Origin: Thermosynechococcaceae cyanobacterium
GTDB lineage: Bacteria; Cyanobacteriota; Cyanobacteriia; Thermosynechococcales; Thermosynechococcaceae
Direction: 5' to 3'
DNA: 64,000 bases
Assembly (NCBI GenBank): GCA_041748155.1
Contig: JBGTDT010000030.1
Location: 14,894 to 78,893 of the forward strand
The notes under the pieces were generated by a model. It was not told the DNA's origin and did no database searches. It saw only the letters and a program-made list of their open reading frames with translations. Shown here one piece after another: positions 19,675-43,898 of this stretch (positions are counted from its first letter, which is position 1; the number at the start of each line of letters is the position of its first letter). A program made the translations under genes and the position numbers.

Positions 19675-20346
19675 ATGTTGATTTCTGACAGCCACAAATT
19701 TATCTTTGTGCACGTTTACAAAACTGCCGGTACCAGTATCAGGCAGGCGTTATCAGCCTATGCTCAGCCGCTCAAGCGTCCGCTTTGCCTACGGGTCTTA
19801 AGACGGTTGGGTGCCCAGCAACTCGCCCAAAAGAACCCTTTAATGGCAATTCATCACCATTCCTCTGCCAGGCAAATTCAAGCTGCCTTTACACCTGGTG
19901 AATTTGAGCAATTTTACAAGTTTGCATTTGTGCGGAACCCTTGGGATTGGCAGGTCTCGCTTTATCACCACATGCTCAAAGAAGAATCCCACCATCAGTA
20001 TGAACTTGCCAAATCATTTGAAAGCTTTGACCAGTATATTCACTGGCGCGTCAATAATAAGCGATTGCAGAAAGATTTTGTGGCTGATGAAGGGGGCAAT
20101 TTGATCGTAGATTTTGTCGGTCACCTTGAAACCCTTGAGCCTGATTTTACATTGGTCTGCGATCGCCTTGGCCTTAACTGCCAGCTTTCTCACCTTAACC
20201 GCTCCGCCCACAAAGACTACAGGTCATACTATACGCCGGAAACAGCGGCACTTGTTGCAGAAGCATTCAAAGCAGACATCGAGTTCTTTGGATACAACTT
20301 TAACGGTCTAAAAAGCTCTAGTGAAACTGAATACCAAACAAGCTAG
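19675..20346 (+). CDS. Sulfotransferase (family-2 type)
   Basis: 223 aa. PAPS 5'-phosphosulfate loop FVHVYKTAGTSIRQAL and 3'-phosphate motif FVRNPWDWQVSLYHH. Confidence 0.75.
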   Translation: MLISDSHKFIFVHVYKTAGTSIRQALSAYAQPLKRPLCLRVLRRLGAQQLAQKNPLMAIHHHSSARQIQAAFTPGEFEQFYKFAFVRNPWDWQVSLYHHMLKEESHHQYELAKSFESFDQYIHWRVNNKRLQKDFVADEGGNLIVDFVGHLETLEPDFTLVCDRLGLNCQLSHLNRSAHKDYRSYYTPETAALVAEAFKADIEFFGYNFNGLKSSSETEYQTS

Positions 20347-20540
20347 GGCTCTATTACAAAAGTCATGTCGATGATGTTCTTTGGAGGAGGTCTGAAAAGT
20401 GGAATCCTTTGCCAAACTTGCCCCGATTCTCAAACAGCCTCTTAAGGTGTCCAGAAAAAGACAGGGTGATTTTGTCAGTTAGAGTTGACTAGGTTCTACC
20501 TGTGAAAGTCATTTGTGTAATCACTTGTGAGCGGACATAA

Positions 20541-22220
20541 ATGAAAGTTATTCAAATTGGCATGGCAAAGAGCGGTAATTATTGGCTCTATACAATCTTG
20601 AAACAAATCCTCAGCCTGTCGGGTCAGTGGCAAGGATCATTCATTCAGAACCAACCGCTTTACGCAGAAGCCAAGAAGCTAACGCTAAGTGTAAAAGATC
20701 AGATTGACATTGACGTAATGAATATTGAGGATACAGGAGTTTACTATCGGATCAGCTCCCTTCCTCCCCACCGGATTGCGAATTTGGCTAACTATCTGGA
20801 CCAGTCCTCTTTGGTTTGGACGCACTCTCCTTTTTGTACTCGTTCTTTGCAGGTTCTATCTCACTTTTCAAAGAAAGTATACATTTGCCGGGATGGACGC
20901 GATGTGGCTGTATCAGCAGCGAGATTTGCGATGACGCCCTACAAGCAGACTTTTTATCCCAATCGGTTTAATACACCCGAAGAGTACCTAGAGAATTGCC
21001 TGGATGGAAAGGCACGAAGCTGGGCCAAGCACTGTGCAGGATATTTGATCTGTCCTGATATTTACTGGGTGTTCTACGAAAGACTCCTCCATGACTTTGA
21101 TCGTGAAATCGAAGGTCTACTCAATTACCTTGAGATAGACCTCAGTGCTGAGGATAAGGCTCAGGTAAAAAACCTAGCCAGTTTTGAGACCATGAAAAAA
21201 GACAGCCCCGACCATTTGAAAAAGGGAAAATCTGGGAACTGGTCCAGTTTTATGAACGAATACCAGCAGAAAAGATTTATTGAGATTGCTGGCTCAGTCC
21301 TAGAAGTACTGGGTTACCAGGTAAATGTGTCTCCACCCACAGCGACTAAGCTGCCCGTTCGGCCTCAATCTATTAGCCCTGAACTACTGAAAGCGTATCA
21401 AAAGAATGGGGTAGGGGGAAGTAAAAAGCCAGCGCTGCTCCCTAGAGCCCTTCAAAAGTTGAACCGTTTAATTTTCCAGACGCTTAAAGCTAAAAAATCA
21501 GAATATCCGGTCAAGATTGAAATGCAGACTTCTAAAGGAAGTATTTACTTAGAAGCGTGCAGCCCAGTTGAATACTATAGACTAAAGACGGCAAGTTACG
21601 GCTATGAGAAAGATTTCTTAGTTCGCTTTACAGGCGAACTAGAAGCAGATGATATCGTCTTCGACATTGGCGCAAATGTTGGTCTGACGACTGTGTACGC
21701 TGCTGCCTTTACAGAAAATGGTCAAGTCATCGCTTTTGAGTCCGACCCTGATACGCTAGGCTATCTGAAGCACAACCTCGGTCTTAACAAGTTTTCCCAT
21801 GTTGACTTTGTCCCCTGGGTACTTGGTGATACAGAAGGCCAAGCAACCTTGTGCCCTGAAGCTGCTGGTTTTGTCTCAGGCCCAAGAGAAGACAGACCAG
21901 TTATTTCGAATGATAAGACCAGGGTGCAAGCACGAACCCTAGACAGCGCCATCTTGAGTGGAGATTTACCCCTGCCAACTGTGCTAAAAATTGACATTGA
22001 GGGGGCTGTAGTTTTGTGTCTTAGAGGTGGGTCAAAATTATTGAACGCAGAGATAGGAGACAAGCCTCGCTTGATTTTTCTTAAACTATATCCAGACTTA
22101 CTTGCCTCATTTAACTCTAGTTCTGATCAGGTTCATCGGTTTCTATTGAGCAAGGGCTATTCGGTGGTCTGGGAGCAGCAACGCAATGCTCAGATCCACT
22201 ATTGCTATAAAACGAACTAA
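20541..22220 (+). CDS. Two-domain protein: N-terminal sulfotransferase plus C-terminal FkbM-family methyltransferase
   Basis: 559 aa. N-terminal half: GMAKSGNYWL, YICRDGRDVAVSAARF, KKGKSGNWSSFM (sulfotransferase-1/3 type motifs). C-terminal half: VFDIGANVGLTTVYAA, VIAFESDPD, VLKIDIEGA (FkbM/Methyltransf_21 type). Confidence 0.75.
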   Translation: MKVIQIGMAKSGNYWLYTILKQILSLSGQWQGSFIQNQPLYAEAKKLTLSVKDQIDIDVMNIEDTGVYYRISSLPPHRIANLANYLDQSSLVWTHSPFCTRSLQVLSHFSKKVYICRDGRDVAVSAARFAMTPYKQTFYPNRFNTPEEYLENCLDGKARSWAKHCAGYLICPDIYWVFYERLLHDFDREIEGLLNYLEIDLSAEDKAQVKNLASFETMKKDSPDHLKKGKSGNWSSFMNEYQQKRFIEIAGSVLEVLGYQVNVSPPTATKLPVRPQSISPELLKAYQKNGVGGSKKPALLPRALQKLNRLIFQTLKAKKSEYPVKIEMQTSKGSIYLEACSPVEYYRLKTASYGYEKDFLVRFTGELEADDIVFDIGANVGLTTVYAAAFTENGQVIAFESDPDTLGYLKHNLGLNKFSHVDFVPWVLGDTEGQATLCPEAAGFVSGPREDRPVISNDKTRVQARTLDSAILSGDLPLPTVLKIDIEGAVVLCLRGGSKLLNAEIGDKPRLIFLKLYPDLLASFNSSSDQVHRFLLSKGYSVVWEQQRNAQIHYCYKTN

Positions 22221-22231
22221 GTTCTCTAGAG

Positions 22232-23215
22232 ATGGTTAATTCCAGAGTATCTATTGTGATTCGTTGCTACAACGAAGAGCAACACATCGGTCGTCTACTC
22301 AGTGGTATTATTCAGCAGACCGTTCAAGATGTAGAAATTATTATCGTGGACTCCGGTTCCACTGATGCCACCCTGCTGATTGCATCGCGCTATCCAGTCA
22401 AAGTACTTTCGATTCGACCAGAAGACTTTTCCTTTGGGCGATCGCTCAACCTGGGTTGTCAGGCAGCGACCAGCGAGTTTCTGGTCATTGCCAGCGCTCA
22501 CGTTTACCCGGTGTATCAAGATTGGCTGGAGCGATTGTTAGCCCCGTTTTCCGATCCACAGGTTGCTTTGGCCTACGGCAAGCAGCGAGGCAATGAGATC
22601 ACGAAGTACTCCGAGCATCAAGTTTTTGCCAGATGGTTTCCGAGTGAATCCAACCTGAGCCAGGATTATCCTTTCTGTAACAATGCCAACGCTGCTATCC
22701 GGCGATCGCTGTGGGAACGGTTGCCCTACAACGAAGCCCTGACGGGATTAGAAGACCTACACTGGGCCAAGCAAGTCATCCAGTTAGGCTATAAAATTGC
22801 CTACGCCTCAGAGGCTGAGATTGTGCATGTACACAACGAAACCCCCCGGCGAATCTTTAATCGGTATCGGCGCGAAGCGATCGCCCTGAAGCATATTTTT
22901 CCGCAGGAACAATTTAACCTCTGGGATTTTATCCGCCTACTGATTACAAATGTCGCTAGCGACTACTACCATGCCAAGCATGATAGAGTCTTGACGAAAA
23001 ATCTTCTCTCTATCCCCACTTTTCGGAGTATGCAATTCTGGGGAACTTACCAGGGTTTTACCCAACAGGGTCCGATTACCAGCCAGCTCAAGCATACCTT
23101 CTACTATCCCCGTGGCCTAGCACGTCCGATCAACCCTTTGACAGCTTCTCACAACAGACCCACGATTGACTACAACAAATCCACCCAGGAGCAATCTATT
23201 GAGCAGGTACATTGA
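22232..23215 (+). CDS. Family-2 glycosyltransferase
   Basis: 327 aa. VSIVIRCYNEEQHIGRLLSGIIQQT ... IIIVDSGSTDAT, and LEDLHWA. Confidence 0.85.
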   Translation: MVNSRVSIVIRCYNEEQHIGRLLSGIIQQTVQDVEIIIVDSGSTDATLLIASRYPVKVLSIRPEDFSFGRSLNLGCQAATSEFLVIASAHVYPVYQDWLERLLAPFSDPQVALAYGKQRGNEITKYSEHQVFARWFPSESNLSQDYPFCNNANAAIRRSLWERLPYNEALTGLEDLHWAKQVIQLGYKIAYASEAEIVHVHNETPRRIFNRYRREAIALKHIFPQEQFNLWDFIRLLITNVASDYYHAKHDRVLTKNLLSIPTFRSMQFWGTYQGFTQQGPITSQLKHTFYYPRGLARPINPLTASHNRPTIDYNKSTQEQSIEQVH

Positions 23216-23840
23216 TATCTCAGTACCCGTATCTCCTGACTTACCTGCCTGGCCGGGTAGTCCCCCTATAGAACTTCAGCGTCGCCTCGATCTAGGGCAA
23301 GGCGATATCGTTAACGATACAACCCTGCATTTCAGTGTCCACACAGGCACTCACGTTGATGCTCCCCTCCACTTCTTAGCTGAGGGAAACAGCGTTGAAC
23401 ATCTACCGCTAGAAGTTCTGATCGGTCCAGCAGTCGTGGTCGATTTGCCAGATACGAATGCAGTATCTTCAGAAATTCTAGAGCAGTTGCCGCTGCCCCC
23501 AGGTGTGGAGCGCTTATTGATTCGTACTCGTAATTCCCGTCTATGGCAAGCAGACGTGCAAAAATTTCAGCCAGACTTTGTTGCCTTAACTGCCGATGCA
23601 GCCGAGTGGATTGTTGATCACGAGATTCGACTGATCGGTGTAGACTATCTCTCCGTACAGCGGTTTCACGACGGGCCAGAAACTCACTTAAATTTACTCA
23701 AAGCCGAAGTCGTAATTCTCGAAGGACTGAATCTAGCCTATGTCCAGGCAGGAGAGTACGAGCTAATATGCCTGCCAGTGATGCTAAAGGGGGTTGAGGG
23801 AGCACCAGCAAGAGCCATTTTACGGAGCTTTCTAAGTTGA
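23166..23840 (+). CDS. Cyclase-family metal hydrolase (kynurenine/aryl-formamidase-like)
   Basis: HTGTHVDAPLHF motif and DYLSV. The start is uncertain: TTG at 23166 or TTG at 23199, and both overlap the 3' end of the GT2 gene. Confidence 0.7.
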   Translation: MTTTNPPRSNLLSRYIDISVPVSPDLPAWPGSPPIELQRRLDLGQGDIVNDTTLHFSVHTGTHVDAPLHFLAEGNSVEHLPLEVLIGPAVVVDLPDTNAVSSEILEQLPLPPGVERLLIRTRNSRLWQADVQKFQPDFVALTADAAEWIVDHEIRLIGVDYLSVQRFHDGPETHLNLLKAEVVILEGLNLAYVQAGEYELICLPVMLKGVEGAPARAILRSFLS

Positions 23841-23861
23841 AATTAAAGGAGAGTGGTAGAG

Positions 23862-24635
23862 ATGCTAGTCATTTCAAATGGGGCGTTCAAGAGTGGATCT
23901 ACCTGGCTATATAATATTTTGCGTTGTATGACAGGCTTTCCTCCCCCTCCTGAGGAGTTCTTAAACCCTAACTGGGTAAATCCTTCAATTGATCCAGAAA
24001 AACTTACAAAATTTCTTAAAGAGGTTGATTTTTCTCACAAAAACTATTTGTGTAAAAATCACTTCGGTGGAAAATACCAGAGGGATCTTTTGCTAGCTTC
24101 TCCAAACGTTTTTATTTTAGATATAAAAAGAGATATTCGCGATGTAGTTGTTTCAGCATATTATCATCATCGCCGCAAGGGATACGATGAAAGCTTCAAA
24201 AATTATTATTGGAAAAAAGGCAAAAAAGTTGCTAACTTCGTTAGTAGTTATCAAAGAAATTGGGATGTTCAATCAACTAAAATTCTTATTGCATCCTATG
24301 AAAAACTACATTCTGATTTTAACAGTGAAACAAAGAAGATAGGAGACTTTTTGGGAATTCAAGTATCCGACCAGCTAAGTGAACAAATTAAAACTGAGAC
24401 AACCCTTGATAGTTTAAGAAATAGGTACGGAGAAAGTGACCAGAGTGATGATTCAAAATTTTTTAGAAAAGGAGTTATAGGAGATTGGCAAAATCATTTT
24501 GATGCCAAAATGGATCAAGATCTTGAGAAAGTGCAGAAGTTCAGTTTAAGTCACTCTGACAAAATTCAAGTAGAAATAACAAAACTTTATACTAAGACTA
24601 AGCGGAAAATAGAGCATTTGTTTTTGCCGAGTTGA
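23862..24635 (+). CDS. Sulfotransferase (family-1 type)
   Basis: GAFKSGSTWLYN, ILDIKRDIRDVVVSAYYH, FFRKGVIGDWQNHF. The ATG at 23862 is preceded by AAGGAG; an alternative GTG lies at 23853. The gene is AT-rich. Confidence 0.8.
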   Translation: MLVISNGAFKSGSTWLYNILRCMTGFPPPPEEFLNPNWVNPSIDPEKLTKFLKEVDFSHKNYLCKNHFGGKYQRDLLLASPNVFILDIKRDIRDVVVSAYYHHRRKGYDESFKNYYWKKGKKVANFVSSYQRNWDVQSTKILIASYEKLHSDFNSETKKIGDFLGIQVSDQLSEQIKTETTLDSLRNRYGESDQSDDSKFFRKGVIGDWQNHFDAKMDQDLEKVQKFSLSHSDKIQVEITKLYTKTKRKIEHLFLPS

Positions 24636-24823
24636 AGCAATGAAGATGTTGAGAAAAAGCCTTGTTTGATAGCTATAGCTGGCTTGTTGAGGGCCAAGTA
24701 TGGTTGGTGTAGACTGAACAGAATGAATTATTACACTTACCTTCATAAAGCTAACTTCTAAAGCTAATAGGAGTGAAAGAAACCCTTTGAGAAAGTAGTT
24801 TTAGAGAGGAGTGATAACAGGTG

Positions 24824-25666
24824 ATGAGGCAGTTCTATTCTTATCTGAAAGAACAACATAGTACTCACCAGTTTCGGGTAGACTTAAAGCATAGTTTGCA
24901 GAGAAAAGAAGCTATTTTGGTCCACACGATGGGTAAGGTAGGTTCATCTTCGATTAGAAAATCCCTCAAGGATTTGGAGTTGAGTATGCCCATTTACGGT
25001 ACCCACTTTCTAAATTCTGAACGCTTAGAAGCACATTTAAAAGTATTGAGACAAAAAGGTCAGAAGCCCGACGGTCATTTGGTAGTGAGTCAATGCCTCC
25101 AAGAAGTAATTAACAAAGGCATTAGTGATATAAATTGGAAAGTCATTACCCTTGTTAGAGAGCCAATTTCCAGGAATGTTTCAGGATTGTTTCAAAATAT
25201 TGATAAAATCTTTCCTAACTTTCTGCAGCGATATCACTCTGGTTCGCTCTCAATTCAGGAAGTTGTCAATGTTTTCCTCGCTGATTATCCCCATGAGCTA
25301 CCTTTAAACTGGCTAGACTGGGAAATAAAAGCTGTGTTTGGTATTGATGTTTTTTCAGTTAACTTTCCAAAGTCTGATGGCTATACAATATTTCATAGAA
25401 ATAATATAGACCTGCTGTTGCTAAGACTAGAAAGCCTTGCCGACTGTTCATTTAAAGCCTTTAGTGAGTTTTTAGGGACAAGAGAATTCACGCTTAAGAA
25501 GGCGAATGACTCAAGTGAGAAGGAATATTCTCAGGCTTATCGAGAATTTCGAAAATCTTTGCATCTTCCTCAAACTTATATAGAAGATATGTATCAGTCT
25601 AAGTATGTACAACATTTTTACACTCAGAACGAAATTGAGCTATTTCAGGCAAAATGGTCAAAGTAG
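24824..25666 (+). CDS. Divergent sulfotransferase-like protein
   Basis: VHTMGKVGSSSIRKSL (P-loop-like PAPS motif) and TLVREPISRNVSGLFQN (an R-x-P-x-x-R-x-x-S type motif). The gene is AT-rich. The family call is tentative. Confidence 0.5.
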   Translation: MRQFYSYLKEQHSTHQFRVDLKHSLQRKEAILVHTMGKVGSSSIRKSLKDLELSMPIYGTHFLNSERLEAHLKVLRQKGQKPDGHLVVSQCLQEVINKGISDINWKVITLVREPISRNVSGLFQNIDKIFPNFLQRYHSGSLSIQEVVNVFLADYPHELPLNWLDWEIKAVFGIDVFSVNFPKSDGYTIFHRNNIDLLLLRLESLADCSFKAFSEFLGTREFTLKKANDSSEKEYSQAYREFRKSLHLPQTYIEDMYQSKYVQHFYTQNEIELFQAKWSK

Positions 25667-25716
25667 CATTGAGTAGCTAGATAAACATTTAGAGTTTTGA
25701 CTTGTTTGGAGATTAG

Positions 25717-26421
25717 ATGAGTAATGTCGCTGCCCTTGTTCCCATGCGCCACACTAGTGAACGGGTTCTTGGTAAGAACTACCGACCCTTTGCTGGACGG
25801 CCACTTTATCATCACATTATCGAAACCTTACTCAACTGCCCTGAAATTAAGCTTGTCTGTATTGACACAGATAGCTCTATGATTATCGAGGATGCTCGCC
25901 AGCATTTCCCCGATGTTAAAATCTTGCTCCGACCTGAGCACCTGCGAGCTGGGACAACTCCCATGAACGACGTGCTGGTAAACTCGGTCTCTCAGGTTGA
26001 TAGTGATGTTTTTCTGCAGACCCACAGTACCAATCCCCTGCTACGGGCTAAAACAATTTCCCAAGCAATCAGTCTGCTGCTCAATAGCCCTGACTACGAC
26101 AGTCTCTTTGGGGTGACCAGACTACAGACGCGGCTGTACGATGCCGCTGGTAAAGCAATGAATCACGACCCCAAGGTTTTGTTGCGAACGCAGGATCTGC
26201 CGCCAGTCTATGAAGAAAATTCAAACCTCTACGTCTTCAGGCGAGATACTTTGTTAGAGCGAAAGAATCGCGTTGGTAGGAGGCCACTTTTGTTTGAAAT
26301 TGACCCCCACGAGGCCTGGGATATAGATGAAGAGGTGGATTTTCGGATTGCTGAGCTACTTTACTTGGATCGACAAACCAGTCCTTCAGCGGAGAGAAAA
26401 ACATGGGCTGGCGAGTTCTGA
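25717..26421 (+). CDS. Acylneuraminate/Kdo-type cytidylyltransferase (CMP-sugar synthetase family)
   Basis: 234 aa. AALVPMRHTSERVLGKNYRPFAGRPLYHHII ... CIDTDS ... LQTHSTNPLL matches the NeuA/KdsB fold pattern. Confidence 0.75.
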   Translation: MSNVAALVPMRHTSERVLGKNYRPFAGRPLYHHIIETLLNCPEIKLVCIDTDSSMIIEDARQHFPDVKILLRPEHLRAGTTPMNDVLVNSVSQVDSDVFLQTHSTNPLLRAKTISQAISLLLNSPDYDSLFGVTRLQTRLYDAAGKAMNHDPKVLLRTQDLPPVYEENSNLYVFRRDTLLERKNRVGRRPLLFEIDPHEAWDIDEEVDFRIAELLYLDRQTSPSAERKTWAGEF

Positions 26422-27353
26422 TCACCTGTCCACCAATGCTACTGACTTTAGCAGAGTGCCAGGCAAGATTCACCACAGAAAACCTGGAAATAGTAGCGCC
26501 TAAAGTCGTACAACAGCTCAGCGAGGCAGAACTTTGTGAAATTATTTCTAATTTTGACGGGGTGATTGCCGGGGATGATCCCTTTACTGCTAAGGTTTTG
26601 GAGAAAGGTCGGCAAGGACGCCTACGAGTCCTGGCGAAATGGGGAATTGGCGTCGATGCGATTGACCTGGTTGCTGCACAAAGACTGGGTATACATACAT
26701 CTAATACCCCAAATGTATTTGGAGACGAAGTTGCTGATGTTGCCTTGGGTTACACAATTCTCCTGGCTCGCCGACTTCATCAAATTGATGCAGCTATTCG
26801 TCAGGGTCAATGGCTGAAAGTTCAGGGTACATCGCTGCGCGGTAAGGTGGCAGGGGTTGTTGGTGTCGGCAGTATTGGCAAAGCGATCGCCCGCCGTTTT
26901 AATACTTTGGGCATGCAGGTGCTTGGCTATGACGTTTACCCGATTGATCCTGCCTTCTGCCAGGAAACGGGTTTGCACCAGGTAGCGTTAGACGACTTGC
27001 TGTGTCAGGTTGATTGCGTTGTCCTCTCCTGTAGTTTGAATTCCAACAACTATCATCTATTGAACGAACAAGCCTTTTCAAGCATGAAAAACGGCGTCTG
27101 GATCGTTAATGTGGCGCGTGGACCCCTGATCGATGAAAAAGCCCTAGTCTCAAGTTTAGAGACTGGAAAAGTAGGGGGAGCCGCCCTGGACGTATTTGAA
27201 TCCGAGCCCCTCGCCCTGGGACACCCTCTACTCAACTATCCGCAAGTTATTGTCGGCAGTCATAATAGTTCTAATACCCGCGAAGCGGTCTTGCGAGTCA
27301 ATCAGCTTGCGATTGACAACTTAGTGCGTGGTTTGAGACAAAATACTGGCTAG
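26403..27353 (+). CDS. D-isomer-specific 2-hydroxyacid dehydrogenase family protein
   Basis: 316 aa. NAD motif GVVGVGSIGKAIARR, NVARGPLIDEKAL, and AALDVFESEP ... GSHNSSNT. Confidence 0.85.
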   Translation: MGWRVLITCPPMLLTLAECQARFTTENLEIVAPKVVQQLSEAELCEIISNFDGVIAGDDPFTAKVLEKGRQGRLRVLAKWGIGVDAIDLVAAQRLGIHTSNTPNVFGDEVADVALGYTILLARRLHQIDAAIRQGQWLKVQGTSLRGKVAGVVGVGSIGKAIARRFNTLGMQVLGYDVYPIDPAFCQETGLHQVALDDLLCQVDCVVLSCSLNSNNYHLLNEQAFSSMKNGVWIVNVARGPLIDEKALVSSLETGKVGGAALDVFESEPLALGHPLLNYPQVIVGSHNSSNTREAVLRVNQLAIDNLVRGLRQNTG

Positions 27354-27369
27354 ATGCTAGCTAGAGTGA

Positions 27370-28116: not shown

Positions 28117-28182
28117 CTATTCAACTGGGCTAGCAGTAGTTTTTTAAGCTAGAGTTAGAACTGCTTCAGGTACTTATTTTGA

Positions 28183-29016: not shown

Positions 29017-29060
29017 CTCAGTGATAGAACCTGGCAACAAAGCTAGAAAGAGCGTAAAAG

Positions 29061-30281: not shown

Positions 30282-30379
30282 CCCTATGGAGAAGAATGGT
30301 TAGGGTAATATGTAAAACTTTAAGTACTTGCAAACAGTTCTAAGCGCGATCGCACTGTGCAGAACATTATTGAATCCTC

Positions 30380-36657: not shown

Positions 36658-37505
36658 ATAACTTAGAGACTAACCACTCTAATTTAGACCGAGCAAAACT
36701 ATCTCCAAAGTTAAGTATCATTACGGTCACTTATAACTCTGCTGAAACGCTGGAGCAAACCATTCAAAGTGTTATTTATCAGCAATATCCAAATCTCGAA
36801 TACATTATTGTTGATGGCGGTTCAACCGATAAAACAATTACTATTATTCAAAACTACCAATTTTGTATTACTAAATGGATATCTGAAAAAGACAACGGCC
36901 TTTATGAGGCTATGAACAAAGGCATAAAGATGGCAAGTGGAGAAATTATTGGTATCATAAACTCGGATGATTTTTACTTAGAGGGAGCATTTAATAAAAT
37001 AATTTCAGCAACAGTTAAACATCCAGATTCTGACGTTTTTTACGGAAACATTGTTTATGATCTGCCAGACTATCCCCTACTTATTTCTCGCTCTAAACAT
37101 CCGCTGAAAAAATCTGACTTTTGCTCAATGCCGATTATGCATCCAACTGTTTTTGTGCGCCAAGATTGTTACCAAAAGTATGGAGCTTTTGATCTGAACT
37201 ATCAGCTCTCTGCCGATCATGAACTAATGCTGCGGCTACTGAAGGCTAAAGTTAGATTTTATTACTTAAATGAAAATATTGCACAAATGCGAGCAGGTGG
37301 AGTAAGCACACAAGACCTTCATGGCATGAGAGAAATTCGAGCAATTTTGTCTAAGCATAATGCTTCCTTTTATACCTTTTTTCGGTTTGCTCTATCTTTT
37401 AGTAGAGTTACGACTGTTCGACTGATTAGCAAGTGGCAAGTAATAAGAGTATTACTGCGTATATATCGTACGCTTAAATCCATGCTTCAAAAAAACTTTG
37501 CTTAA
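36654..37505 (+). CDS. Family-2 glycosyltransferase
   Basis: 283 aa. LSIITVTYNSAETLEQTIQSV ... YIIVDGGSTDKT ... INSDDFY. ATGA overlap with the upstream gene. Confidence 0.85.
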   Translation: MNNLETNHSNLDRAKLSPKLSIITVTYNSAETLEQTIQSVIYQQYPNLEYIIVDGGSTDKTITIIQNYQFCITKWISEKDNGLYEAMNKGIKMASGEIIGIINSDDFYLEGAFNKIISATVKHPDSDVFYGNIVYDLPDYPLLISRSKHPLKKSDFCSMPIMHPTVFVRQDCYQKYGAFDLNYQLSADHELMLRLLKAKVRFYYLNENIAQMRAGGVSTQDLHGMREIRAILSKHNASFYTFFRFALSFSRVTTVRLISKWQVIRVLLRIYRTLKSMLQKNFA

Positions 37506-37516
37506 TCAGACAGGGC

Positions 37517-38617
37517 ATGAATAAAATTATTGTTAACGGGTCATTCTTAAAGCGTCGTGTGACGGGCGTAGCCCGCTACGCTCGCGAGATTACCACCCGA
37601 ATTTTGGAGAAAGAAAACATCTTTATAGCTTGTGATCAAGCAGCTCACCCAGAGCTTGAGCCTGGTAAAGTCTTTCATGTACCCCAGAGTTGGGCGACAA
37701 AGATTTTGGGGACAAAAGCCTGGAACCAATTTGATCTCCCCCGCTATATTGGCTCCAGCGTGTTATGGAGTCCTGAAAACATTGGACCCCTTGGGATTGT
37801 CAACCATGTTGTTACCGTTCATGACCTGTCTCCATTGGACCATCCAGAGTGGTTTCGTCCTAGTGTGGTAGCAGTATACAGATTTTATCTTCCTCGTCTA
37901 ATTAGACAGGCCAGGGTAGTTCTGACTGTTTCTGAATACTTTCGCAACCGCATTCTCAAGCAATTTCAGATACCAGAAGCCCAAGTCAGCGTAATTCCCT
38001 GTGCCGTTGATGCTCGATTCCATCCCTGTACCAGCAGTGAAGCTGTTGCTTTGCGCCAGCGATATAACCTGCCTGAGCAGTATATTTTGTCCCTCGGTTC
38101 TCTGGAACCTCGTAAAAACATCCGTAATCTTCTTGCCGCGTGGAAGCGCTTGCCACCTGAAGTTCATGATAACGTATCCCTTGTAGTTACCGGCGATCGC
38201 GGAGACGTTTTCGCGGAGCAAGACCACCGTTCTCAGATCAGTCAGATACCAGGGGTAATCTTTACAGGTTACCTAGCTGATCAAGATCTGCCAGCCTTGT
38301 ACTCAGCAGCCTCGGGGCTGGTTTACCCCTCCTTGTACGAGGGTTTTGGCCTACCTCCGCTTGAAGCAATGGCTTGTGGAACACCAGTTATTACCTGTAG
38401 GAACACTGCACTACCTGAGGTAGTCGGAGAAAGTGCTTTATTTGTGGACCCCTGTGACCCAGACTCAATCGCAGCGGCTATTCAATTAGTCATCAAGGAT
38501 AGAGGTTTGCGATCGCATCTATCTCAAGTTGGGCTAGACCGAGCAAAGCAATTTAGCTGGGACAAATCAGCAGACAGGGTGTATGGCAAGCTTAGTGAAA
38601 TAAGTCAAAAAAATTAA
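37517..38617 (+). CDS. Family-4 glycosyltransferase
   Basis: 366 aa. [19 protein letters not shown] and [23 protein letters not shown]. Confidence 0.85.
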
Positions 38618-38653
38618 GTACACGCTGAAAGTATACAAGAGTAAACTTTAAAG

Positions 38654-40021
38654 ATGATTACTATTGCTACAAGTTTACTAGTAACTTCATTTGCAATTCT
38701 ACTAATCGTTTTCTTTCGCAAGAAGATAAATTTAATATCAAACTACACAGTATATGTTTTTTTTACTGTTCTTTACTCTGTATTCCCAACCCTAACTTTT
38801 CTCAAAATAGAACCGCAGATATGGTTTCGTCACTACACGCTCAATGAATCTGAATTACTAGTATCAACACAAATTCTAATCATGAGTTTGTGCAACATCA
38901 TCTTCGCATATGTTTTCTACTCAAGCTATAGAAAGTCAAATATCTCCGCTGTCAGGCCTCAGGCTGCCAAAAAGGATATTTATCAAAACCTAATCTTTAT
39001 CAGTTATACAATAGCGTGCCTAGCGCTAATACTTATTGGACTTAAGTATAGCTATACTTCTAATAGAGGAATAATAGTACACTCGATTATATCAAACGCG
39101 AAGACGATATTAGCATCAGTCTATGTGTTCTTTATCGTCAGATATGGACTGAGCTACCGTATACTTCTGATGTTTTTTGGCTATGTTTTTCTGCTGCTTG
39201 TTGAACAGTCGAGAATATACTTTGTCATGGTATTAGTTACAAGTTTGCTTTACTTACAGAATACAAAAGAAGTTAAGAAAGAAACACTAATAAGCACTAA
39301 CGGCTTGTTGCAAGTTATCAGTAGTGTCAAGACGGGAAAGCTAAGTAATAGGCAAATGATAGCTCTATTGTTAGTATCCTTTGTACTTTTATCCTATGTT
39401 GCATTAGCAAGGTCTGGTGTTAAAATTGAAGACTTCATAATCTTTCTTAATCCATTTTATATAGAAGGCGACTATGGATCATACATGATCTTACAAACCT
39501 ACGATCTAGTTTACAAAGGGGTCATTGACTTCTATACACTGTTTCTAGATTACCTGGTTGATCCAATTATTTATCTTTTGCCGAGATTCATTTTTATGCT
39601 CTCTGGAATAAACAAAGATGGTGTAGGAATATTTGAAACTTTTGTGGCTTCTTATGATCGCTACTTAGCCGAAAAATATGCCCCAGTCGGAGGTTTTCAT
39701 TACATCGCTCAAGCCTCTAGTGCTTTACCATTTCTGGGTCCACTACTTGTAACTTATATTTTTGCTAGAGTAACTGTCAGGGTAGAAAACTCTATGCGTA
39801 AAGCTACAGTCAGTAATTTTAGTGAGTTAACATACTATTTATACTCTTCTGGTTTTGCATTTGTCTTCATAAAAACCTTGTTTCATCAAACTGTAAAATA
39901 CTACGCAACACTTGCTATTCCTGCCTACTTTCTATTCTTTTTACTGAAAAGATATGATAAGGAAAAAGCAAAACGAAGTCACCAAAAAAACTTGCATTTT
40001 CAACGCTCGCTTTCTAACTAG
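38654..40021 (+). CDS. Polytopic membrane protein, Wzy-like polysaccharide polymerase candidate
   Basis: 455 aa with about 10 or more hydrophobic segments. AT-rich, sits between two GT4 genes. Assigned by context and topology only. Confidence 0.5.
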   Translation: MITIATSLLVTSFAILLIVFFRKKINLISNYTVYVFFTVLYSVFPTLTFLKIEPQIWFRHYTLNESELLVSTQILIMSLCNIIFAYVFYSSYRKSNISAVRPQAAKKDIYQNLIFISYTIACLALILIGLKYSYTSNRGIIVHSIISNAKTILASVYVFFIVRYGLSYRILLMFFGYVFLLLVEQSRIYFVMVLVTSLLYLQNTKEVKKETLISTNGLLQVISSVKTGKLSNRQMIALLLVSFVLLSYVALARSGVKIEDFIIFLNPFYIEGDYGSYMILQTYDLVYKGVIDFYTLFLDYLVDPIIYLLPRFIFMLSGINKDGVGIFETFVASYDRYLAEKYAPVGGFHYIAQASSALPFLGPLLVTYIFARVTVRVENSMRKATVSNFSELTYYLYSSGFAFVFIKTLFHQTVKYYATLAIPAYFLFFLLKRYDKEKAKRSHQKNLHFQRSLSN

Positions 40022-41090
40022 GCCTGTCACTGGAGTTGAGCGATATGCAACTGAACTTCTAAAGGCTTTGGATTTTTTAATCGACATTGGAGAGATAAGC
40101 TCCAAACAATTCTCCTTTGAGTTACTAGCTCCAAAAAATGTTAAGCATAGTCTTAACCTTAAGCATATACCTCTTAAATGTGTGGGGCTATTTAGTGGTC
40201 ATCTGTGGGAGCAGCTAGAATTACCTTTTTATGCTAAAGGTGCTCTGCTAATTAACTTGTGTAATACAGCACCGTTACTAACTCGTCTTCAAATTGTAAC
40301 CATTCATGATGCAGTAGTTTATGCTTTTCCCGACGCTTACTCTTTCATTTTCCGGTCTTGGTACCAACTACTTTGGCCGAGCTTAGGGGTAGTTGCTAAA
40401 CAGATACTGACAACTTCACTATTCTCAAAAAAAGAATTGATGCAGCATTGCAAGATAAGCCAAGAAAAGTTGCAGATAGTCTATGCAGGAAAAGAACATA
40501 TCCTTGCTATACAGTCAGATGAAAAGGTTTTTCTAAAACATGGCTTAGTAGGTCGGAAGTATGCGTTGGCAGTCAGTAGCTTAAACCCTAATAAAAACTT
40601 TTCTTCTATCGTTCGAGCTATCGAAATATTGGGTGATGTTGACTTTGATATTGTGATTGTGGGGGGTGCTAATCCAAAAATTTTTAGCCAGACGCAAATA
40701 TCCCTGCCCAATAGTGTTAAGTACTTAGGTTATGTAAGTGATGCTGAGCTGAAAGCTCTATATGAGTATGCAAGCTGTTTTATCTACCCTTCTTTTTACG
40801 AGGGATTTGGTTTACCCCCACTTGAGGCAATGGCCTGTGGTTGCCCAGTAATAGTTTCTGGTGCTGCCTCCCTACCTGAAGCATGTGCTGATGCAGCTCT
40901 GTATTGTGACCCCTATGACCTCGAAGACATCGCCAACAAGCTGGTTATGCTGATGAATAACACCAAACTTCGTGAAGAGCTACGGCAAAAAGGTTTGGAA
41001 CGTGCTAAACAGTTTACTTGGCAGAAGTGTGCTAGAGAGGCTTTTGCCGTAATCGAAAAAGTCCTAGCTTCGCAGGCTTTTTACTTTTAA
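39954..41090 (+). CDS. Family-4 glycosyltransferase (paralog of 37517-38617)
   Basis: 378 aa. FNARFLTRPVTGVERYATEL and [23 protein letters not shown]. The only in-frame start overlaps the upstream gene by 68 nt. Confidence 0.8.
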   Translation: MIRKKQNEVTKKTCIFNARFLTRPVTGVERYATELLKALDFLIDIGEISSKQFSFELLAPKNVKHSLNLKHIPLKCVGLFSGHLWEQLELPFYAKGALLINLCNTAPLLTRLQIVTIHDAVVYAFPDAYSFIFRSWYQLLWPSLGVVAKQILTTSLFSKKELMQHCKISQEKLQIVYAGKEHILAIQSDEKVFLKHGLVGRKYALAVSSLNPNKNFSSIVRAIEILGDVDFDIVIVGGANPKIFSQTQISLPNSVKYLGYVSDAELKALYEYASCFIYPSFYEGFGLPPLEAMACGCPVIVSGAASLPEACADAALYCDPYDLEDIANKLVMLMNNTKLREELRQKGLERAKQFTWQKCAREAFAVIEKVLASQAFYF

Positions 41091-41635
41091 GGCTTACTTA
41101 TCAGAACTACCAAGTCTTCTAGCTTTCAAGTGGTTTTAACTAGATAGACCTAATCTTTTACTCAATTTTACTGCTTTGCCCTTAGTTAAAGACTTAAGAA
41201 GTGATAATCAACTAAATTTCCTCAAGCTATAGGAGTTTGTTGTTACAAAAGGACCTAATTATGTTTATTTGATTTCTAATTGCAAGAACCTGCAAGCAGT
41301 TAGGCTTGTACAAAAGCTACTTCTACAGAAGCCTTGAGCTTAAAAATTAAATTCAAGTTGATAAATTTTGCTCTTGATGGCTAAGTAGGTAAAGTTGAAG
41401 ATTTTTGCCTTTCTCATGAAAGAAGCTTTAAAGGTAGGTGTGATGGTGTATTCATTTAGCACACTCATAGATCTGCTAGATAATTCTTAGCGTCGAGTCT
41501 GCAACTGCTACAACATAGCTTTACGGAATCTTCTTTGGGTTGCGCTAAGGTTACAAGATAGCTGTAACTTAATATAGAGGCCAGCATGCTTGTTTTGATT
41601 CAGCTTTGCTCTGGAGTGTCTTGCTGCAAACTCAG

Positions 41636-42769
41636 ATGAAAATCGCCATTGTTCATGATTGGCTACTGGTCTATGGCGGCGCCGAGCGAGTGCTGGAGCA
41701 TATTCTTTTGCTTTTCCCCGATGCAGACTTATTTAGCTTGGTAGATTTCTTGCCTCAAGATCAGCGTGATTTCATTCAGAACAAGCCTGTTAAAACCTCT
41801 TTTATCCAAAACCTACCCCTTGCTAAAGAGAAATATCGGCAGTATCTATTGCTGATGCCGCTTGCCGTAGAGCAGTTTGATTTATCTGGCTACGACTTGG
41901 TGATTTCTAACTCCTATGCAGTCGCTAAGGGTGTCTTAACAGGACCAGACCAGTTACATCTATGTATATGCTGCTCCCCAATTCGTTACGCCTGGGACTT
42001 GCAGCACCAATATTTGAGAGAGACAGGATTAGATCAAGGCGTGAAAGGCTGGATAGCGAAGTGGTTCCTTCACAGAATGCGCTTGTGGGATGCTCGAACA
42101 GCCAACGGTGTAGATGAGTTTATTGCAATTTCAAAATTTATTGCTCGCCGAATTTGGAAAGTTTACCATCGCAAGTCTACAGTGATTTACCCTCCAGTAG
42201 ATGTTAAGAACTTTGCCTTGTGTGAGATCAAAGAAGACTTTTACCTGACCGCATCACGTATGGTGCCTTACAAACACATCGATCTGATTGTGAAGGCTTT
42301 TTCTCAGATGCCCGATAAAAAATTAATTGTGATTGGTGATGGACCAGACTTTGAGAAGATTCATACCCACTCGGGAGACAACATTGTCCTGTTGGGCTAT
42401 CAAACCTTTGATGTGTTAAAGAACTATATGCAGCGAGCAAAGGCTTTTGTGTTTGCAGCAGAAGAAGACTTTGGAATCACTCCTGTAGAAGCACAGTCTT
42501 GTGGCACGCCAGTGATCGCTTTCGGTAAAGGTGGAGCCCTGGAGACGATTCGTGGTCTAACTCGTGAACAACCAACGGGTATCTTTTTTGAGCATCAAGA
42601 CGTCAACAGCCTCAAGGACGCAGTGATGCTGTTTGAAAAATCCTGCGATTTTATTTTTCCAACTGCCTGCCGAGCAAACGCTATACGGTTCAGCGAGGAG
42701 CGGTTTCGGGATGAAATGGGAAGTTACATTGATAAAGCATGGCATAAATTTCAAAGACGGCTAGACTGA
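41636..42769 (+). CDS. Family-4 glycosyltransferase
   Basis: The ATG at 41636 gives MKIAIVHDWLLVYGGAERVLE. EDFGITPVEAQSCGTPVIAFGKGGALE. The TTG at 41606 in the ORF track is less likely. Confidence 0.85.
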   Translation: MKIAIVHDWLLVYGGAERVLEHILLLFPDADLFSLVDFLPQDQRDFIQNKPVKTSFIQNLPLAKEKYRQYLLLMPLAVEQFDLSGYDLVISNSYAVAKGVLTGPDQLHLCICCSPIRYAWDLQHQYLRETGLDQGVKGWIAKWFLHRMRLWDARTANGVDEFIAISKFIARRIWKVYHRKSTVIYPPVDVKNFALCEIKEDFYLTASRMVPYKHIDLIVKAFSQMPDKKLIVIGDGPDFEKIHTHSGDNIVLLGYQTFDVLKNYMQRAKAFVFAAEEDFGITPVEAQSCGTPVIAFGKGGALETIRGLTREQPTGIFFEHQDVNSLKDAVMLFEKSCDFIFPTACRANAIRFSEERFRDEMGSYIDKAWHKFQRRLD

Positions 42770-42884
42770 TTAGGACATAATTCAGTAATGCTTTCGAGCA
42801 TAGAAAGTTCTTAATCGGTGCTGTGACTATACTGATGATTGAGATTTAAAGGTGCAAAAGGTAAGGTAAGGTAAGAGAAGGGTT

Positions 42885-43898
42885 ATGAAAAAAGCCCTGA
42901 TTTGCGGTATATCTGGTCAGGATGGAGCTTACCTAGCTCGCTTCGCTTTGAGTAAGGGCTACGAGGTTTGGGGTACGTCCCGTGATGCCCAAATGGCATC
43001 GTTCCAAAACCTAGTCCGTTTAGGCATTCGTGAGCAAGTCAAAGTTGAGTCAGTTGCTTTGAATGACTTCCGCAGTGTCTTACAGGTGTTGATGAAGATT
43101 CATCCTGATGAAGTTTATAACCTAGCAGGACAAAGTTCAGTCGGTCTTTCTTTTCAACAGCCTGTTGAAACGCTGGAGAGCATCAGCATCGGAACCTTGA
43201 ATCTCTTAGAAGCCATCCGCTTTACAGGCCAACCGATCAAATTCTACAATGCAAATTCTAGCGAGTGCTTTGGCGATGCAGGCGGTATGGCTGCTGATGA
43301 GGTGACTCCCTTTCGTCCCAGAAGTCCCTATGCGGTAGCCAAGGCAGCGGCCTTTTGGGAGTTAGCCAACTACCGCGAAGCCTATGGCCTGTTTGCTTGT
43401 TCTGGGATTCTCTTCAATCATGAATCTCCCTTAAGGCCGGAGCGGTTTGTCACCAAGAAAATTGTTGCTGCGGCCTGTCGGATTGCTGCTGGTAGCCAAG
43501 AAAAACTTCATTTGGGCAACATTTCGATTCAACGAGATTGGGGCTGGGCACCTGAATACGTTGAGGCTATGTGGTTGATCTTGCAGCAAGAACGACCCGA
43601 TGATTTCGTAATTGCGACTGGTAAGTCCTACAAGCTAGAAGAATTTGTCGAAATGGCCTTTGCCTGTGTGGATCTAAATTGGCATGACCATGTTGTCAGC
43701 GATCCGAGATTACTTCGACCTACTGATCTTGCAGTCGGAAAGGGGAATCCAGCAAAAGCCTCAGAAAAGCTAGGATGGCATGTGAAATACCAGATGCCAG
43801 ATGTGGTGCGAATGATGGTTCAGGCAGAACAGTCAGGAAGTTTAGACTTACCAAGTGTTTCCCGTCTTGCCTGGGAAACAACCAGAACCTCCTGTTAG
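42885..43898 (+). CDS. gmd: GDP-mannose 4,6-dehydratase
   Basis: 337 aa. KKALICGISGQDGAYLARFALSKGYEVWG, SPYAVAK, and ILFNHESPLRPERFVTKKI. Confidence 0.9.
   Translation: MKKALICGISGQDGAYLARFALSKGYEVWGTSRDAQMASFQNLVRLGIREQVKVESVALNDFRSVLQVLMKIHPDEVYNLAGQSSVGLSFQQPVETLESISIGTLNLLEAIRFTGQPIKFYNANSSECFGDAGGMAADEVTPFRPRSPYAVAKAAAFWELANYREAYGLFACSGILFNHESPLRPERFVTKKIVAAACRIAAGSQEKLHLGNISIQRDWGWAPEYVEAMWLILQQERPDDFVIATGKSYKLEEFVEMAFACVDLNWHDHVVSDPRLLRPTDLAVGKGNPAKASEKLGWHVKYQMPDVVRMMVQAEQSGSLDLPSVSRLAWETTRTSC

Follow-up and report, generated by a model that had tools for sequence, protein, structure and literature searches.

Within a 64,000-nt stretch of DNA from a Thermosynechococcaceae cyanobacterium (the whole of which we call the window), positions 19675-43898 hold a 24-kb island of glycan genes. 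This island is a genuine surface-polysaccharide locus, pieced together from two gene blocks with counterparts in other bacteria: block A (22232-29016), which includes a cytidylyltransferase, and block B (33191-41090), which includes a pyruvyl transferase and a candidate polymerase. It is a cyanobacterial sulfated-glycan locus of a known sort, built from exchangeable blocks. On balance, we think it likely that the island directs the Wzy-dependent assembly of a repeat-unit, sulfated acidic surface heteropolysaccharide (O-antigen, capsule or released exopolysaccharide), with export genes that are unlinked. Its domains predict a final glycan that would be sulfated, pyruvylated and O-methylated. 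More tentatively, block A may encode a route to an acidic sugar activated with cytidine monophosphate (CMP) that involves neither NeuB nor KdsA.

An unbroken island of polysaccharide genes

To call domains, each protein of the island was scanned against Pfam and NCBIfam, and across the whole window each open reading frame (ORF) of at least 120 amino acids (aa) was scanned. Genes are referred to by start position, and retrieved comparison loci, whether metagenomic or from genomes and plasmids, carry L-numbers (L082, L166, L170 and so on). The ORF listing gives 21 plus-strand ORFs in unbroken series, with only short shadow ORFs on the minus strand within them. Together with the domain scans, this upholds the glycan island that an earlier note on this DNA had delimited.

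Six GT2 or GT4 genes exceed their Pfam cut-offs and, with an MptE-like protein, provide the multiple glycosyltransferases that mark a repeat-unit locus. Nine genes had been listed as transferase-like; seven are over threshold, 29061 falls below it and 30380 has no match. The FkbM, pyruvyl-transferase and cytidylyltransferase calls all pass Pfam thresholds, and the predicted oxygenase fusion does contain both of its domains (PF05721 and PF00355).

Block A carries a cytidylyltransferase cassette found across bacteria

Block A encodes, all on the plus strand, a GT2 glycosyltransferase (GT2a; 22232-23215; PF00535, 82 bits), a metal-dependent hydrolase of the PF04199 'cyclase' family (23166-23840; 97 bits), an NKWYS-family protein (discussed below), a cytidylyltransferase of the NeuA/KdsB superfamily (CTP_transf_3; 25717-26421; PF02348, 125 bits), a D-isomer-specific 2-hydroxyacid dehydrogenase (2HADH; 26403-27353; PF02826, 184 bits), a classical short-chain dehydrogenase/reductase (SDR) resembling glucose/aldohexose 1-dehydrogenases (27370-28116; adh_short_C2, 211 bits), and a 277-aa MptE-like/DUF115 protein of the Maf type, GT42-like (28183-29016; PF01973, 46.2 bits vs a cut-off of 34.6). 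The hydrolase, which the earlier list had missed, is kynurenine-formamidase-like, with a kynurenine formamidase as its best match in the PDB (E = 7e-37). Among solved relatives of the 2HADH, the best match is the phosphoglycerate dehydrogenase 1wwk (5e-49); a probable 2-ketogluconate reductase is listed at 6e-36, and glyoxylate/hydroxypyruvate reductases also occur. The SDR is closest to BacC, glucose 1-dehydrogenase 3vtz and the aldohexose dehydrogenase-related 2dtd. For the MptE-like protein, NCBIfam gave weak WaaZ and PseD matches.

The cytidylyltransferase domain bears out the CMP-activated sugar branch that had been proposed, though not as a standard sialic, pseudaminic or Kdo-type branch. 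Its best PDB match is a NeuA (E = 5e-15), and it lies below every NCBIfam equivalog cut-off (PseF 87 vs 206; KdsB models 21-42 vs 155-281). No NeuB- or KdsA-like sequence is present in the window. Going by these scores, 25717 is a distinct cytidylyltransferase subfamily.

Rippkaea PCC 8801, Crocosphaera, Thermocoleostomius, Elainellaceae and Snowella have relatives of 25717 with 70-78% identity, and Candidatus Electrothrix has one with 68%. The three genomic contexts examined all have the 2HADH and the SDR directly after the cytidylyltransferase. A metagenome scan returned 80 further cassette loci, 26 of which have enough flanking sequence (long-flank loci) and carry the cytidylyltransferase, and the block A core was seen in 88 loci across bacteria. 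In the 26 long-flank loci, a GT2a homologue (49-73% identity) lies directly upstream of the cytidylyltransferase in 20 and a 2HADH directly downstream in 23; an SDR is found in 22, a cyclase-family gene in 14 and an MptE-like gene in 10. The usual order is GT2, hydrolase, cytidylyltransferase, 2HADH, SDR, MptE. A search of open-access papers for this cytidylyltransferase/2HADH pairing found nothing relevant, which is no proof of absence.

The closest parallel is L170, which lies on a 1.06-Mb contig and has a seven-gene block collinear with block A, NKWYS included. Identities between the two are 64% for the GT2, 57% for the hydrolase, 50% for NKWYS, 66% for the cytidylyltransferase, 70% for the 2HADH, 59% for the SDR and 59% for the MptE-like protein. 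Within the block, the window departs from L170 only by an additional Sulfotransfer_1 gene, 23853, and the L170 block is surrounded by genes for an FkbM methyltransferase, a Sulfotransfer_1, a Sulfotransfer_2 and a GDP-mannose 4,6-dehydratase (GMD). Given this collinear block and its surroundings, we regard the left half of the island as a recurrent design.

As to the hydrolase, 31 of the 88 loci have only the cyclase type, 4 only an SMP-30 gluconolactonase and none both. The plasmid pAge77 of Thalassovita gelatinovora (L176) has all cassette components, but an SMP-30/gluconolactonase-family gene after the SDR replaces the cyclase-type hydrolase; further SMP-30 homologues occur in cassette loci L148, L151 and L155. 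Such exclusivity would be expected if unrelated enzymes had replaced one another at a lactonase step, and the patchy presence of a hydrolase fits a step able to proceed spontaneously. After the pAge77 cassette (10725-16194) stand two more MptE-like genes, one of them encoding about 1580 aa and annotated only as MptE-like.

A sister variant of the cassette is found in eight loci (L154, L157, L158, L161, L164, L165, L090 and L177, an Acuticoccus plasmid), where an HpcH/HpaI-type pyruvate aldolase directly follows the cytidylyltransferase. The cytidylyltransferases of these loci are 48-64% identical, and an SDR accompanies only one of the eight. A low-identity 2HADH (5 of 8 loci), a cyclase-family gene and a HAD phosphatase are often nearby. 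HpcH-type pyruvate aldolases make 2-keto acids, and the aldolase variant thus ties this clade of cytidylyltransferases to non-canonical 2-keto acids.

Block B, a probable assembly core beside interchangeable supply modules

Block B encodes, again on the plus strand, a 733-aa fusion of a radical S-adenosylmethionine (SAM)-like N-terminal domain with a polysaccharide pyruvyl transferase of the CsaB/WcaK-like type (33191-35392; PF04230, 66.7 bits vs 25.3, residues 394-667), followed by a GT4 (35392-36657; PF00534, 98 bits), a GT2 (36654-37505; PF00535, 95 bits), a second GT4 (37517-38617; PF00534, 122 bits), a membrane protein of about 10 transmembrane (TM) segments with no Pfam domain (38654-40021) and a third GT4 (39954-41090; PF00534, 106 bits). 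The membrane protein is the only polytopic one in the island. L166 has counterparts of all six in the same order, 55-76% identical (in gene order 55, 76, 65, 66, 65 and 66%).

In L166 the genes directly upstream of the collinear block are a CTP_transf_3 gene, a NeuB fusion and one for an MptE-like protein. A gene of the 10-TM family again follows such a module in L167, where the module comprises NeuB, HAD, SDR, Aldedh and CTP_transf_3. The counterparts of 39954 in both loci (58% identical in L167) likewise sit after the membrane protein. These arrangements indicate an assembly block coupled to interchangeable CMP-acid supply modules and, relative to L166, the swap of modules places block A in the functional slot of nonulosonic-acid supply. 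This coupling is the best indirect sign that block A delivers an ulosonic-type acid. The earlier note had considered the island's combination of functions unusual, and we found no characterised locus that has it; its halves, on the other hand, recur, one in L170 with the FkbM, two sulfotransferase and GMD genes, the other in L166.

The first gene of the block has diverged from its L166 homologue, a Radical_SAM plus PS_pyruv_trans protein (L166:3641-6019). Over its N-terminal half (33191-34240), the window protein shows two in-frame deletions relative to L166, one of 18 aa that removes the CxxxCxxC motif (VCNSKCQMC in L166) and one of 33 aa that removes a second cysteine-containing segment. It has no Radical_SAM Pfam match. 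We consider this domain probably catalytically dead and kept as a scaffold. Scores of the C-terminal domain lie under the CsaB (TIGR03609, 79.8 vs 213) and WcaK (26-28 vs 399-727) cut-offs; by profile, 33191 is a member of the pyruvyl-transferase family and not a named CsaB or WcaK orthologue.

The 10-TM protein, 38654, is of a rare family: 5.8e9 clusters yielded only 17 relatives, all of them lacking a Pfam domain, of which the L166 protein is the closest. Two more distant relatives offer an informative context. In L173 the order is Bac_transf, sugar-nucleotide genes, a MOP flippase, GT2, the 10-TM relative, GT4, GT4 and Wzz, and in L174 the relative is found with Polysacc_synt and Bac_transf. 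In both, it stands between glycosyltransferases and no other polymerase candidate is present. On gene context rather than homology, we take 38654 to be a probable Wzy-type polymerase.

A proposed oxidative route to a CMP-activated acid

Enzymes of the NeuA/KdsB superfamily activate 2-keto sugar acids. Since the cassette has no synthase, and in view of what its SDR, 2HADH and hydrolase are related to, we propose that the acid may be made oxidatively and reach the glycan by way of a CMP-2-keto-aldonate; we advance this route as a possibility and hold it tentatively. The classical SDR would first oxidise a free aldose to its lactone, which the cyclase-family hydrolase, as a proposed lactonase, would open to the aldonate. 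The 2HADH would then oxidise C2 to give a 2-keto-aldonic (2-ulosonic) acid, the NeuA-like cytidylyltransferase would convert this to the CMP-acid, and the MptE-like, sialyltransferase-fold enzyme, which we propose to be the CMP-acid transferase, would transfer it. In some cyanobacterial cassettes, an NKWYS-type sulfotransferase may then sulfate the acid. Each chemical step is predicted from enzyme families and context. Proteins with the PF01973 domain have a fold like that of GT42 sialyltransferases and use CMP-Neu5Ac and CMP-Kdo as donors (bioRxiv 10.1101/2020.06.03.131540).

Several observations weigh against the oxidative route. The 2HADH is closest to phosphoglycerate dehydrogenases, a resemblance that would suggest a phosphorylated C3 substrate instead. 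The aldolase variant often has the 2HADH and largely lacks the SDR, which does not fit a 2HADH that simply makes the keto group. An MptE-like gene is near the cassette in no more than 10 of the 26 long-flank loci. Finally, on the Thalassovita plasmid, kdsA directly precedes the genes for the SDR, the SMP-30 lactonase and the MptE proteins.

Some of these features bear on an alternative, in which unlinked KdsA- or NeuB-type enzymes provide the cassette with an ulosonic acid (Kdo, Kdn or a nonulosonic acid) and its dehydrogenases epimerise or oxidise that acid before or after CMP activation, in the manner of Ela/Kdn-type tailoring, or in which the cassette starts from 3-phosphoglycerate via phosphohydroxypyruvate. 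The kinship of the 2HADH to phosphoglycerate dehydrogenases, its persistence in the aldolase variant with HAD phosphatases close by, and the kdsA gene of pAge77 all speak for it. So do the inositol-phosphatase-family gene that abuts the island, another of which lies beside the L157 cassette, and the presence of NeuB in 3 of 27 long-flank cassette loci, although two of these three have an additional, distinct cytidylyltransferase paralogue. Against it, NeuB is absent from the other 24 loci, and neither the window nor any cassette locus from the metagenomes, Rippkaea, Thermocoleostomius or Electrothrix contains KdsA. Movement of the cassette between phyla without a synthase is easier to explain by a universal starting metabolite, the SDR is of the classical small-molecule type and not an extended nucleotide-sugar SDR, and a lactonase family stands in for the hydrolase. 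We regard this alternative as doubtful, though it merits serious weight beside the oxidative route.

Assembly and export of the predicted glycan

For the island as a whole, we favor Wzy-dependent repeat-unit assembly. Block B would form the assembly core, with three GT4 enzymes, one GT2, the pyruvyl transferase and the 10-TM protein as Wzy-type polymerase, while block A would supply and attach the CMP-activated acidic sugar. The repeat unit would be decorated by the three sulfotransferases and NKWYS, the FkbM domain, the pyruvyl transferase and an oxygenase with PhyH and Rieske domains, and a GMD would feed a 6-deoxyhexose branch. Flippase, priming transferase, polysaccharide co-polymerase and outer-membrane export protein (PCP/OPX), synthesis of 3'-phosphoadenosine 5'-phosphosulfate (PAPS) and GDP-sugar reductase would come from elsewhere in the genome.

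The scan of window ORFs confirms the absences that the earlier note had reported: we found no Wzx, Wza/Wzc, KpsMT, ATP sulfurylase/APS kinase or regulator gene in the 64 kb, and no window ORF matched the priming or export families Bac_transf, Glycos_transf_4 (WecA), Wzz/GNVR or Poly_export. The only MOP-family protein in the window is an ordinary MATE protein (3759-5090), 15 kb away; it has no similarity to the MOP flippase of L173, and we rejected it as the missing flippase. From these absences the note had concluded that the pathway must draw on distant loci or use unrecognised components. We do not follow the second of these readings, because export genes in cyanobacteria are usually dispersed and loci without exporters are the norm (PMC4594306; PMC8205485). 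Maeda et al. report that cyanobacterial sulfotransferase genes lie mostly in exopolysaccharide-type clusters that are 'more or less partial' (PMC8205485).

Four points count against a Wzy-dependent locus. With no Wzx, priming transferase or PCP/OPX in 64 kb, the pathway is not closed from the window. The candidate polymerase has no Wzy (Wzy_C), EpsG or O-antigen-ligase Pfam match even at E <= 10. An AlphaFold2 (AF2) model of 38654 (pLDDT 75) has the O-antigen ligase WaaL (7tpg) as its sole standout PDB match (probability 0.80, vs <=0.12 for others), a point in favor of a polymerase role, but this fold match is not significant (E = 0.25, TM score 0.30-0.33); since Foldseek searches with the 38654 and NKWYS models gave no match at E <= 0.001, we take them only as weak directional evidence. 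Lastly, the radical-SAM-like domain of 33191 lacks the cluster-binding cysteines, so that part of block B may be non-functional.

Assembly could instead depend on an ABC transporter or a synthase, with the sulfotransferase-FkbM fusion and the CMP-acid transferase capping or terminating the non-reducing end, and with the 10-TM protein as, for example, a ligase or an acyl/modification enzyme. The two-function layout of the fusion may call to mind chain terminators such as WbdD. WbdD places a methyl/phosphate cap, and WbbB a beta-Kdo cap, at the non-reducing end. The window lacks a Wzx; in L167, a Wzi gene and two genes for ABC-type transporters follow the 10-TM homologue at a distance of 8-10 kb; and cyanobacterial sulfotransferase clusters include the ABC as well as the Wzx/Wzy type (PMC8205485). 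The window lacks an ABC transporter too, however, the 10-TM relatives of L173 and L174 stand beside Bac_transf and a flippase, with Wzz in L173, and eight or nine different transferases are more in keeping with a complex repeat unit than with an ABC substrate of the homopolymer type. We consider ABC- or synthase-dependent assembly unlikely.

Least probable is that the MptE-like/Maf-type transferase and the CMP-acid supply glycosylate a protein such as type IV pilin or S-layer rather than a polysaccharide. In its favor, characterised Maf proteins (PF01973) do O-glycosylate flagellins with CMP-ulosonic acids, and the DNA 5.5-10 kb upstream of the island carries pilMNOQ. Against it, 28183 is a 277-aa protein without flanking Maf domains and with a negligible PseD score, the cassette sits amid glycosyltransferases, enzymes that modify polysaccharides and a polymerase candidate, both in the island and in L085, L166 and L170, and the pil genes are on the opposite strand with unrelated genes between them and the island.

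Sulfotransferases and the NKWYS family

Of the four sulfotransferase domains first noted in the island, three exceed Pfam thresholds. The first (19675-20346, +; 223 aa) is a Sulfotransfer_2 protein (PF03567, 46.5 bits vs a cut-off of 22) with YKTAGTS as its 5'-phosphosulfate-binding (5'-PSB) motif and RNPWDWQVS as its 3'-phosphate-binding (3'-PB) motif. The second (20541-22220, +; 559 aa) joins a Sulfotransfer_1 domain (residues 3-251; PF00685, 67 bits) to an FkbM SAM methyltransferase (375-541; PF05050, Methyltransf_21, 45 bits), the latter also scoring 79 bits against TIGR01444 fkbM_fam (cut-off 37.7). Its motifs are a variant 5'-PSB, AKSGNYW, the 3'-PB RDGRDVAVS and the SAM motif DIGANVG. 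The two functions reside on one polypeptide here, unlike in L170 and Rippkaea, where FkbM has a gene to itself. The third (23853-24635, +; 260 aa) is a Sulfotransfer_1 protein (PF00685, 88 bits; FKSGSTW and RDIRDVVVS). Its gene lies as an extra within block A, between the hydrolase and NKWYS genes, a position where L170 and all other cassette loci lack it.

The fourth (24821-25666, +; the database gene call starts at 24824) is the NKWYS-family protein (PF10364, 93 bits), which has no Sulfotransfer Pfam match even at E <= 10. All four sulfotransferase-like proteins nevertheless retain both PAPS-binding motifs, which in 24821 read GKVGSSS and REPISRNVS. In an alignment of 51 NKWYS sequences, the near-invariant residues K38, G40 and S41, and R112, P114, R117 and S120, coincide with the 5'-PSB and 3'-PB motifs of PAPS sulfotransferases. 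A profile of the family searched against the PDB had heparan-sulfate 3-O-sulfotransferases at the top (E = 0.004), aligned at the 3'-PB as VREPxxRxxS, and one member of the family has a precomputed Sulfotransfer_2 (PF03567) match. Single-sequence PDB searches with 24821, 28183 and 30380 gave no match. The structural comparison is a weaker point: the AF2 model of 24821 (pLDDT 95) has as its top Foldseek match human SULT1C1 with 3'-phosphoadenosine 5'-phosphate (PAP), at a non-significant E = 0.05. A search of open-access papers for NKWYS or PF10364 likewise returned nothing relevant, and this silence proves nothing.

We consider 24821 a likely, though unproven, PAPS-dependent sulfotransferase, a view that draws on conserved motifs. 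Because NKWYS is embedded in the cassette in the window, in Rippkaea (L082) and in L170, the product of the cassette or its acceptor is a plausible substrate.

Junction genes and the right end of the island

Three genes at the junction of the two blocks have no counterpart in L166 or L170. The first (29061-30281, +) encodes a divergent GT-B-like protein that falls short of the PF00534 cut-off (24.9 vs 26.4 bits) and has no homologue in any related locus. The second (30380-31324, +) has no Pfam match even at E <= 10, and no NCBIfam or PDB sequence match; by eye only, it has a GT-A-like N-terminus and an EDD motif. The third (31630-32967, +; 445 aa) is the oxygenase, a PhyH-type non-haem-iron domain (PF05721, 31 bits) with a C-terminal Rieske [2Fe-2S] domain (PF00355, 42 bits) that matches Rieske ferredoxins in the PDB. 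The fusion recurs as a family: of 1.84e9 representatives searched, 1024 match at E <= 1e-3 and 129 at E <= 1e-30, and many matches span the full length of 400-450 aa. It is pure speculation, if an attractive thought for an oxygenic phototroph, that this neighbor of the degenerate domain might be an O2-dependent replacement for the lost radical-SAM function.

To the right of block B, after a 515-bp gap without an ORF, lies a further GT4 (41606-42769, +; PF00534, 80 bits), 38% identical to the next GT4 in L167. The last island gene (42885-43898, +) encodes an extended SDR resembling GMD (PF16363, GDP_Man_Dehyd, 361 bits). The original gmd call is sound at the family level and short of the equivalog (TIGR01472, 348 vs 415 bits). 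No partner reductase or epimerase (fcl/rmd) is found in the window. In L144, L148, L170 and L178, too, the cassette has a GMD-like gene (42-50% identical to 42885) only a few kb away, and this proximity in unrelated loci hints that the 6-deoxyhexose branch is functionally tied to the cassette.

Flanks, composition and origin

On the right, the island is followed by UbiD (43998-45515, +), for which many filamentous and terrestrial cyanobacteria have homologues with 86-88% identity. On the left, a divergent gene (18668-19561, -) encodes a HisN/CysQ-like phosphatase of the inositol-monophosphatase family (PF00459, 155 bits). Its HisN score (133 bits) exceeds its CysQ score (75 bits) and both are under cut-off, so a role as a CysQ PAP phosphatase that aids sulfation is unsupported. 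A 31%-identical homologue adjoins the 2HADH-cytidylyltransferase pair of L157 (2209-2916). That the phosphatase is cassette-linked or acts on PAP, and so is linked to the island, is possible but unproven. Further upstream are a DUF427 gene and a tRNA-Gly confirmed by Rfam. The flanks otherwise encode CoaBC, a copper amine oxidase, the MATE transporter, AlaRS, Uma2 nucleases, PilMNOQ, a solute-binding protein, a FolC-like ligase, a UvrD helicase, a P450, ferritin-like proteins, CrcB, CoaE and ChlH/CobN.

None of 80 loci fetched for this comparison shares the island neighbourhood around UbiD, and each of ten window proteins tested is a singleton cluster at 90% identity. We found no boundary repeats or integration scars, including any att-like direct repeat of the tRNA-Gly 3' end. 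An island of the marine-Synechococcus type inserted at a tRNA is rejected on these grounds, the relatives of UbiD being filamentous and terrestrial, the neighbourhood unshared and an att-like repeat lacking.

The GC content of the island is 0.35-0.50, vs 0.50-0.60 in the flanks, with its minimum in the Sulfotransfer_1 gene 23853 (0.344). The earlier note had described a compositional mosaic, and for this inserted gene the description holds; we keep 23853 as a separate acquisition and, less firmly, NKWYS. Many independent acquisitions are rejected for block B, whose gene-by-gene GC swings are reproduced in L166 and were therefore inherited together with the block.

The distribution of the HIP1 octamer (GCGATCGC) adds a measure of residence time. 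The window has 57 copies, 14 of them within the island, at 0.58/kb vs ~1/kb in the flanks. Base composition alone predicts ~0.2 copies in the island, which argues that much of it has long resided in HIP1-bearing cyanobacterial genomes. The copies favor higher-GC genes (three in GT2a 22232, three in GT4 35392, two in GT4 37517). The octamer is absent from the low-GC genes (Sulfotransfer_1 23853, NKWYS, the MptE-like gene, GT2 36654, the 10-TM gene and GT4 39954) and also from the Sulfotransfer_1-FkbM fusion, the PhyH-Rieske gene, GT4 41606 and the GMD gene.

Three gaps in the island (31325-31629, 32968-33190 and 41091-41605) contain no ORF of ~40 aa or more and may be boundaries of transcription units. 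Scans for consensus promoters and terminators are uninformative on operons, since they gave no more sites than shuffled sequence.

Some further features of the surroundings were recorded. Genes for putative Uma2-family endonucleases flank the region at 8517-9110 (-) and 45523-46161 (-), the latter directly after UbiD, and another is 3 kb from the cassette in Rippkaea (L082:6398-7009). An inverted repeat within the UbiD coding sequence (44356-44411) has 23-nt arms that are 96% complementary, with a 10-nt spacer (GTCAGGGTCTTTTGCAGCGGGTT ... AAGCCGCTGCAAAAGACCCTGAC). ARAGORN called a 95-nt 'tRNA-Pyl (cta)' at 47411-47505 (-), which is under the threshold of the Rfam tRNA model and probably a false positive; beside it, at 47314-47355, is a 21-nt tandem duplication (TCCAGTTCAGAACTTCACTAT / TCGAGTTCAGAACTCCACCAG).

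Implications

Sulfated polysaccharides of cyanobacteria are of ecological and industrial importance, and to our knowledge xss/synechan is the only characterised locus for one. The island shows sulfated-glycan loci to be built from exchangeable blocks, a conserved assembly/polymerase block with alternative modules for acid-sugar supply, and this exchangeability provides a rational basis for combinatorial engineering. In addition, NKWYS (PF10364), annotated as a 'putative capsular polysaccharide synthesis protein', becomes a candidate sulfotransferase family.

The cassette is the chief point of interest, as a conserved cytidylyltransferase-dehydrogenase module in dozens of unrelated bacteria and metagenomes. 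An aldolase-type synthase defines every CMP-ulosonic-acid pathway we know of, and the cassette is without one. If its product is a CMP-2-keto-aldonic acid, this would be a new class of nucleotide-activated sugar acid in bacterial glycobiology, spread over cyanobacteria, Desulfobulbales (cable bacteria), Alphaproteobacteria and many metagenomes. Glycans with hexulosonic acids, such as Escherichia coli K3, would then have candidate genes, and the origin of these acids could be explained.

Comparison with known systems

The synechan locus (xss) of Synechocystis sp. PCC 6803, on pSYSM (sll5042-5060), shares with the island several glycosyltransferases, PAPS-type sulfotransferases and a Wzy-type polymerase, the last only predicted here. 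It too needs at least one export gene from outside the cluster, xssT, which encodes an OPX protein (PMC8205485). In contrast to the island, it carries Wzx, a PCP, a priming transferase and the regulators XssQ/R/S, whereas the island has the cytidylyltransferase cassette, pyruvyl transferase, FkbM domain and oxygenase that xss lacks. A tblastn search of all island proteins against the xss region found generic GT2/GT4 similarity only (21-34%, over parts of the proteins) and nothing homologous to the sulfotransferases, Wzy, Wzx, PCP or regulators, and the xssA-xssS order is not shared. We reject the island as an xss orthologue.

With CsaB and with WcaK of colanic acid synthesis, the island shares the PS_pyruv_trans domain, and the company of gmd and GT4 genes resembles colanic-acid-type loci. 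It differs in that 33191 is fused to a radical-SAM-derived domain of ~350 aa, and in having no fcl, wzx, wza, wzb or wzc. The Maf/DUF115 flagellin transferases have the same PF01973 domain and GT42-like fold as 28183, with CMP-Neu5Ac, CMP-Kdo, CMP-Pse and CMP-Leg as donors. They are larger, multi-domain proteins that act on flagellin, unlike 28183, which has a single domain, a polysaccharide context and negligible PseD and WaaZ scores. The E. coli K3 capsule, with its side-branch of 4-deoxy-2-hexulosonic acid, is a precedent for an acid-labile, charge-conferring 2-hexulosonic acid. K3 belongs to the group 3 capsules, which depend on an ABC transporter, and its locus is genetically unassigned; the likeness to the island is through the proposed chemistry alone.

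Similar in design are the Wzy loci for CMP-nonulosonic acids, in which NeuB/PseI/LegI, NeuA/PseF/LegF and a transferase form an acid-supply module that likewise lies beside glycosyltransferases and a polymerase. The closest example we found is the uncharacterised locus L166, and both it and the island have an MptE-like transferase. Unlike these loci, the island has a supply module without NeuB or KdsA, made up instead of the GT2, hydrolase, cytidylyltransferase, 2HADH and SDR. Because no synthase is present and the cytidylyltransferase matches no equivalog, the cassette falls outside the membership of the CMP-nonulosonic-acid and CMP-Kdo modules; as far as gene content can tell, it resembles them in logic.

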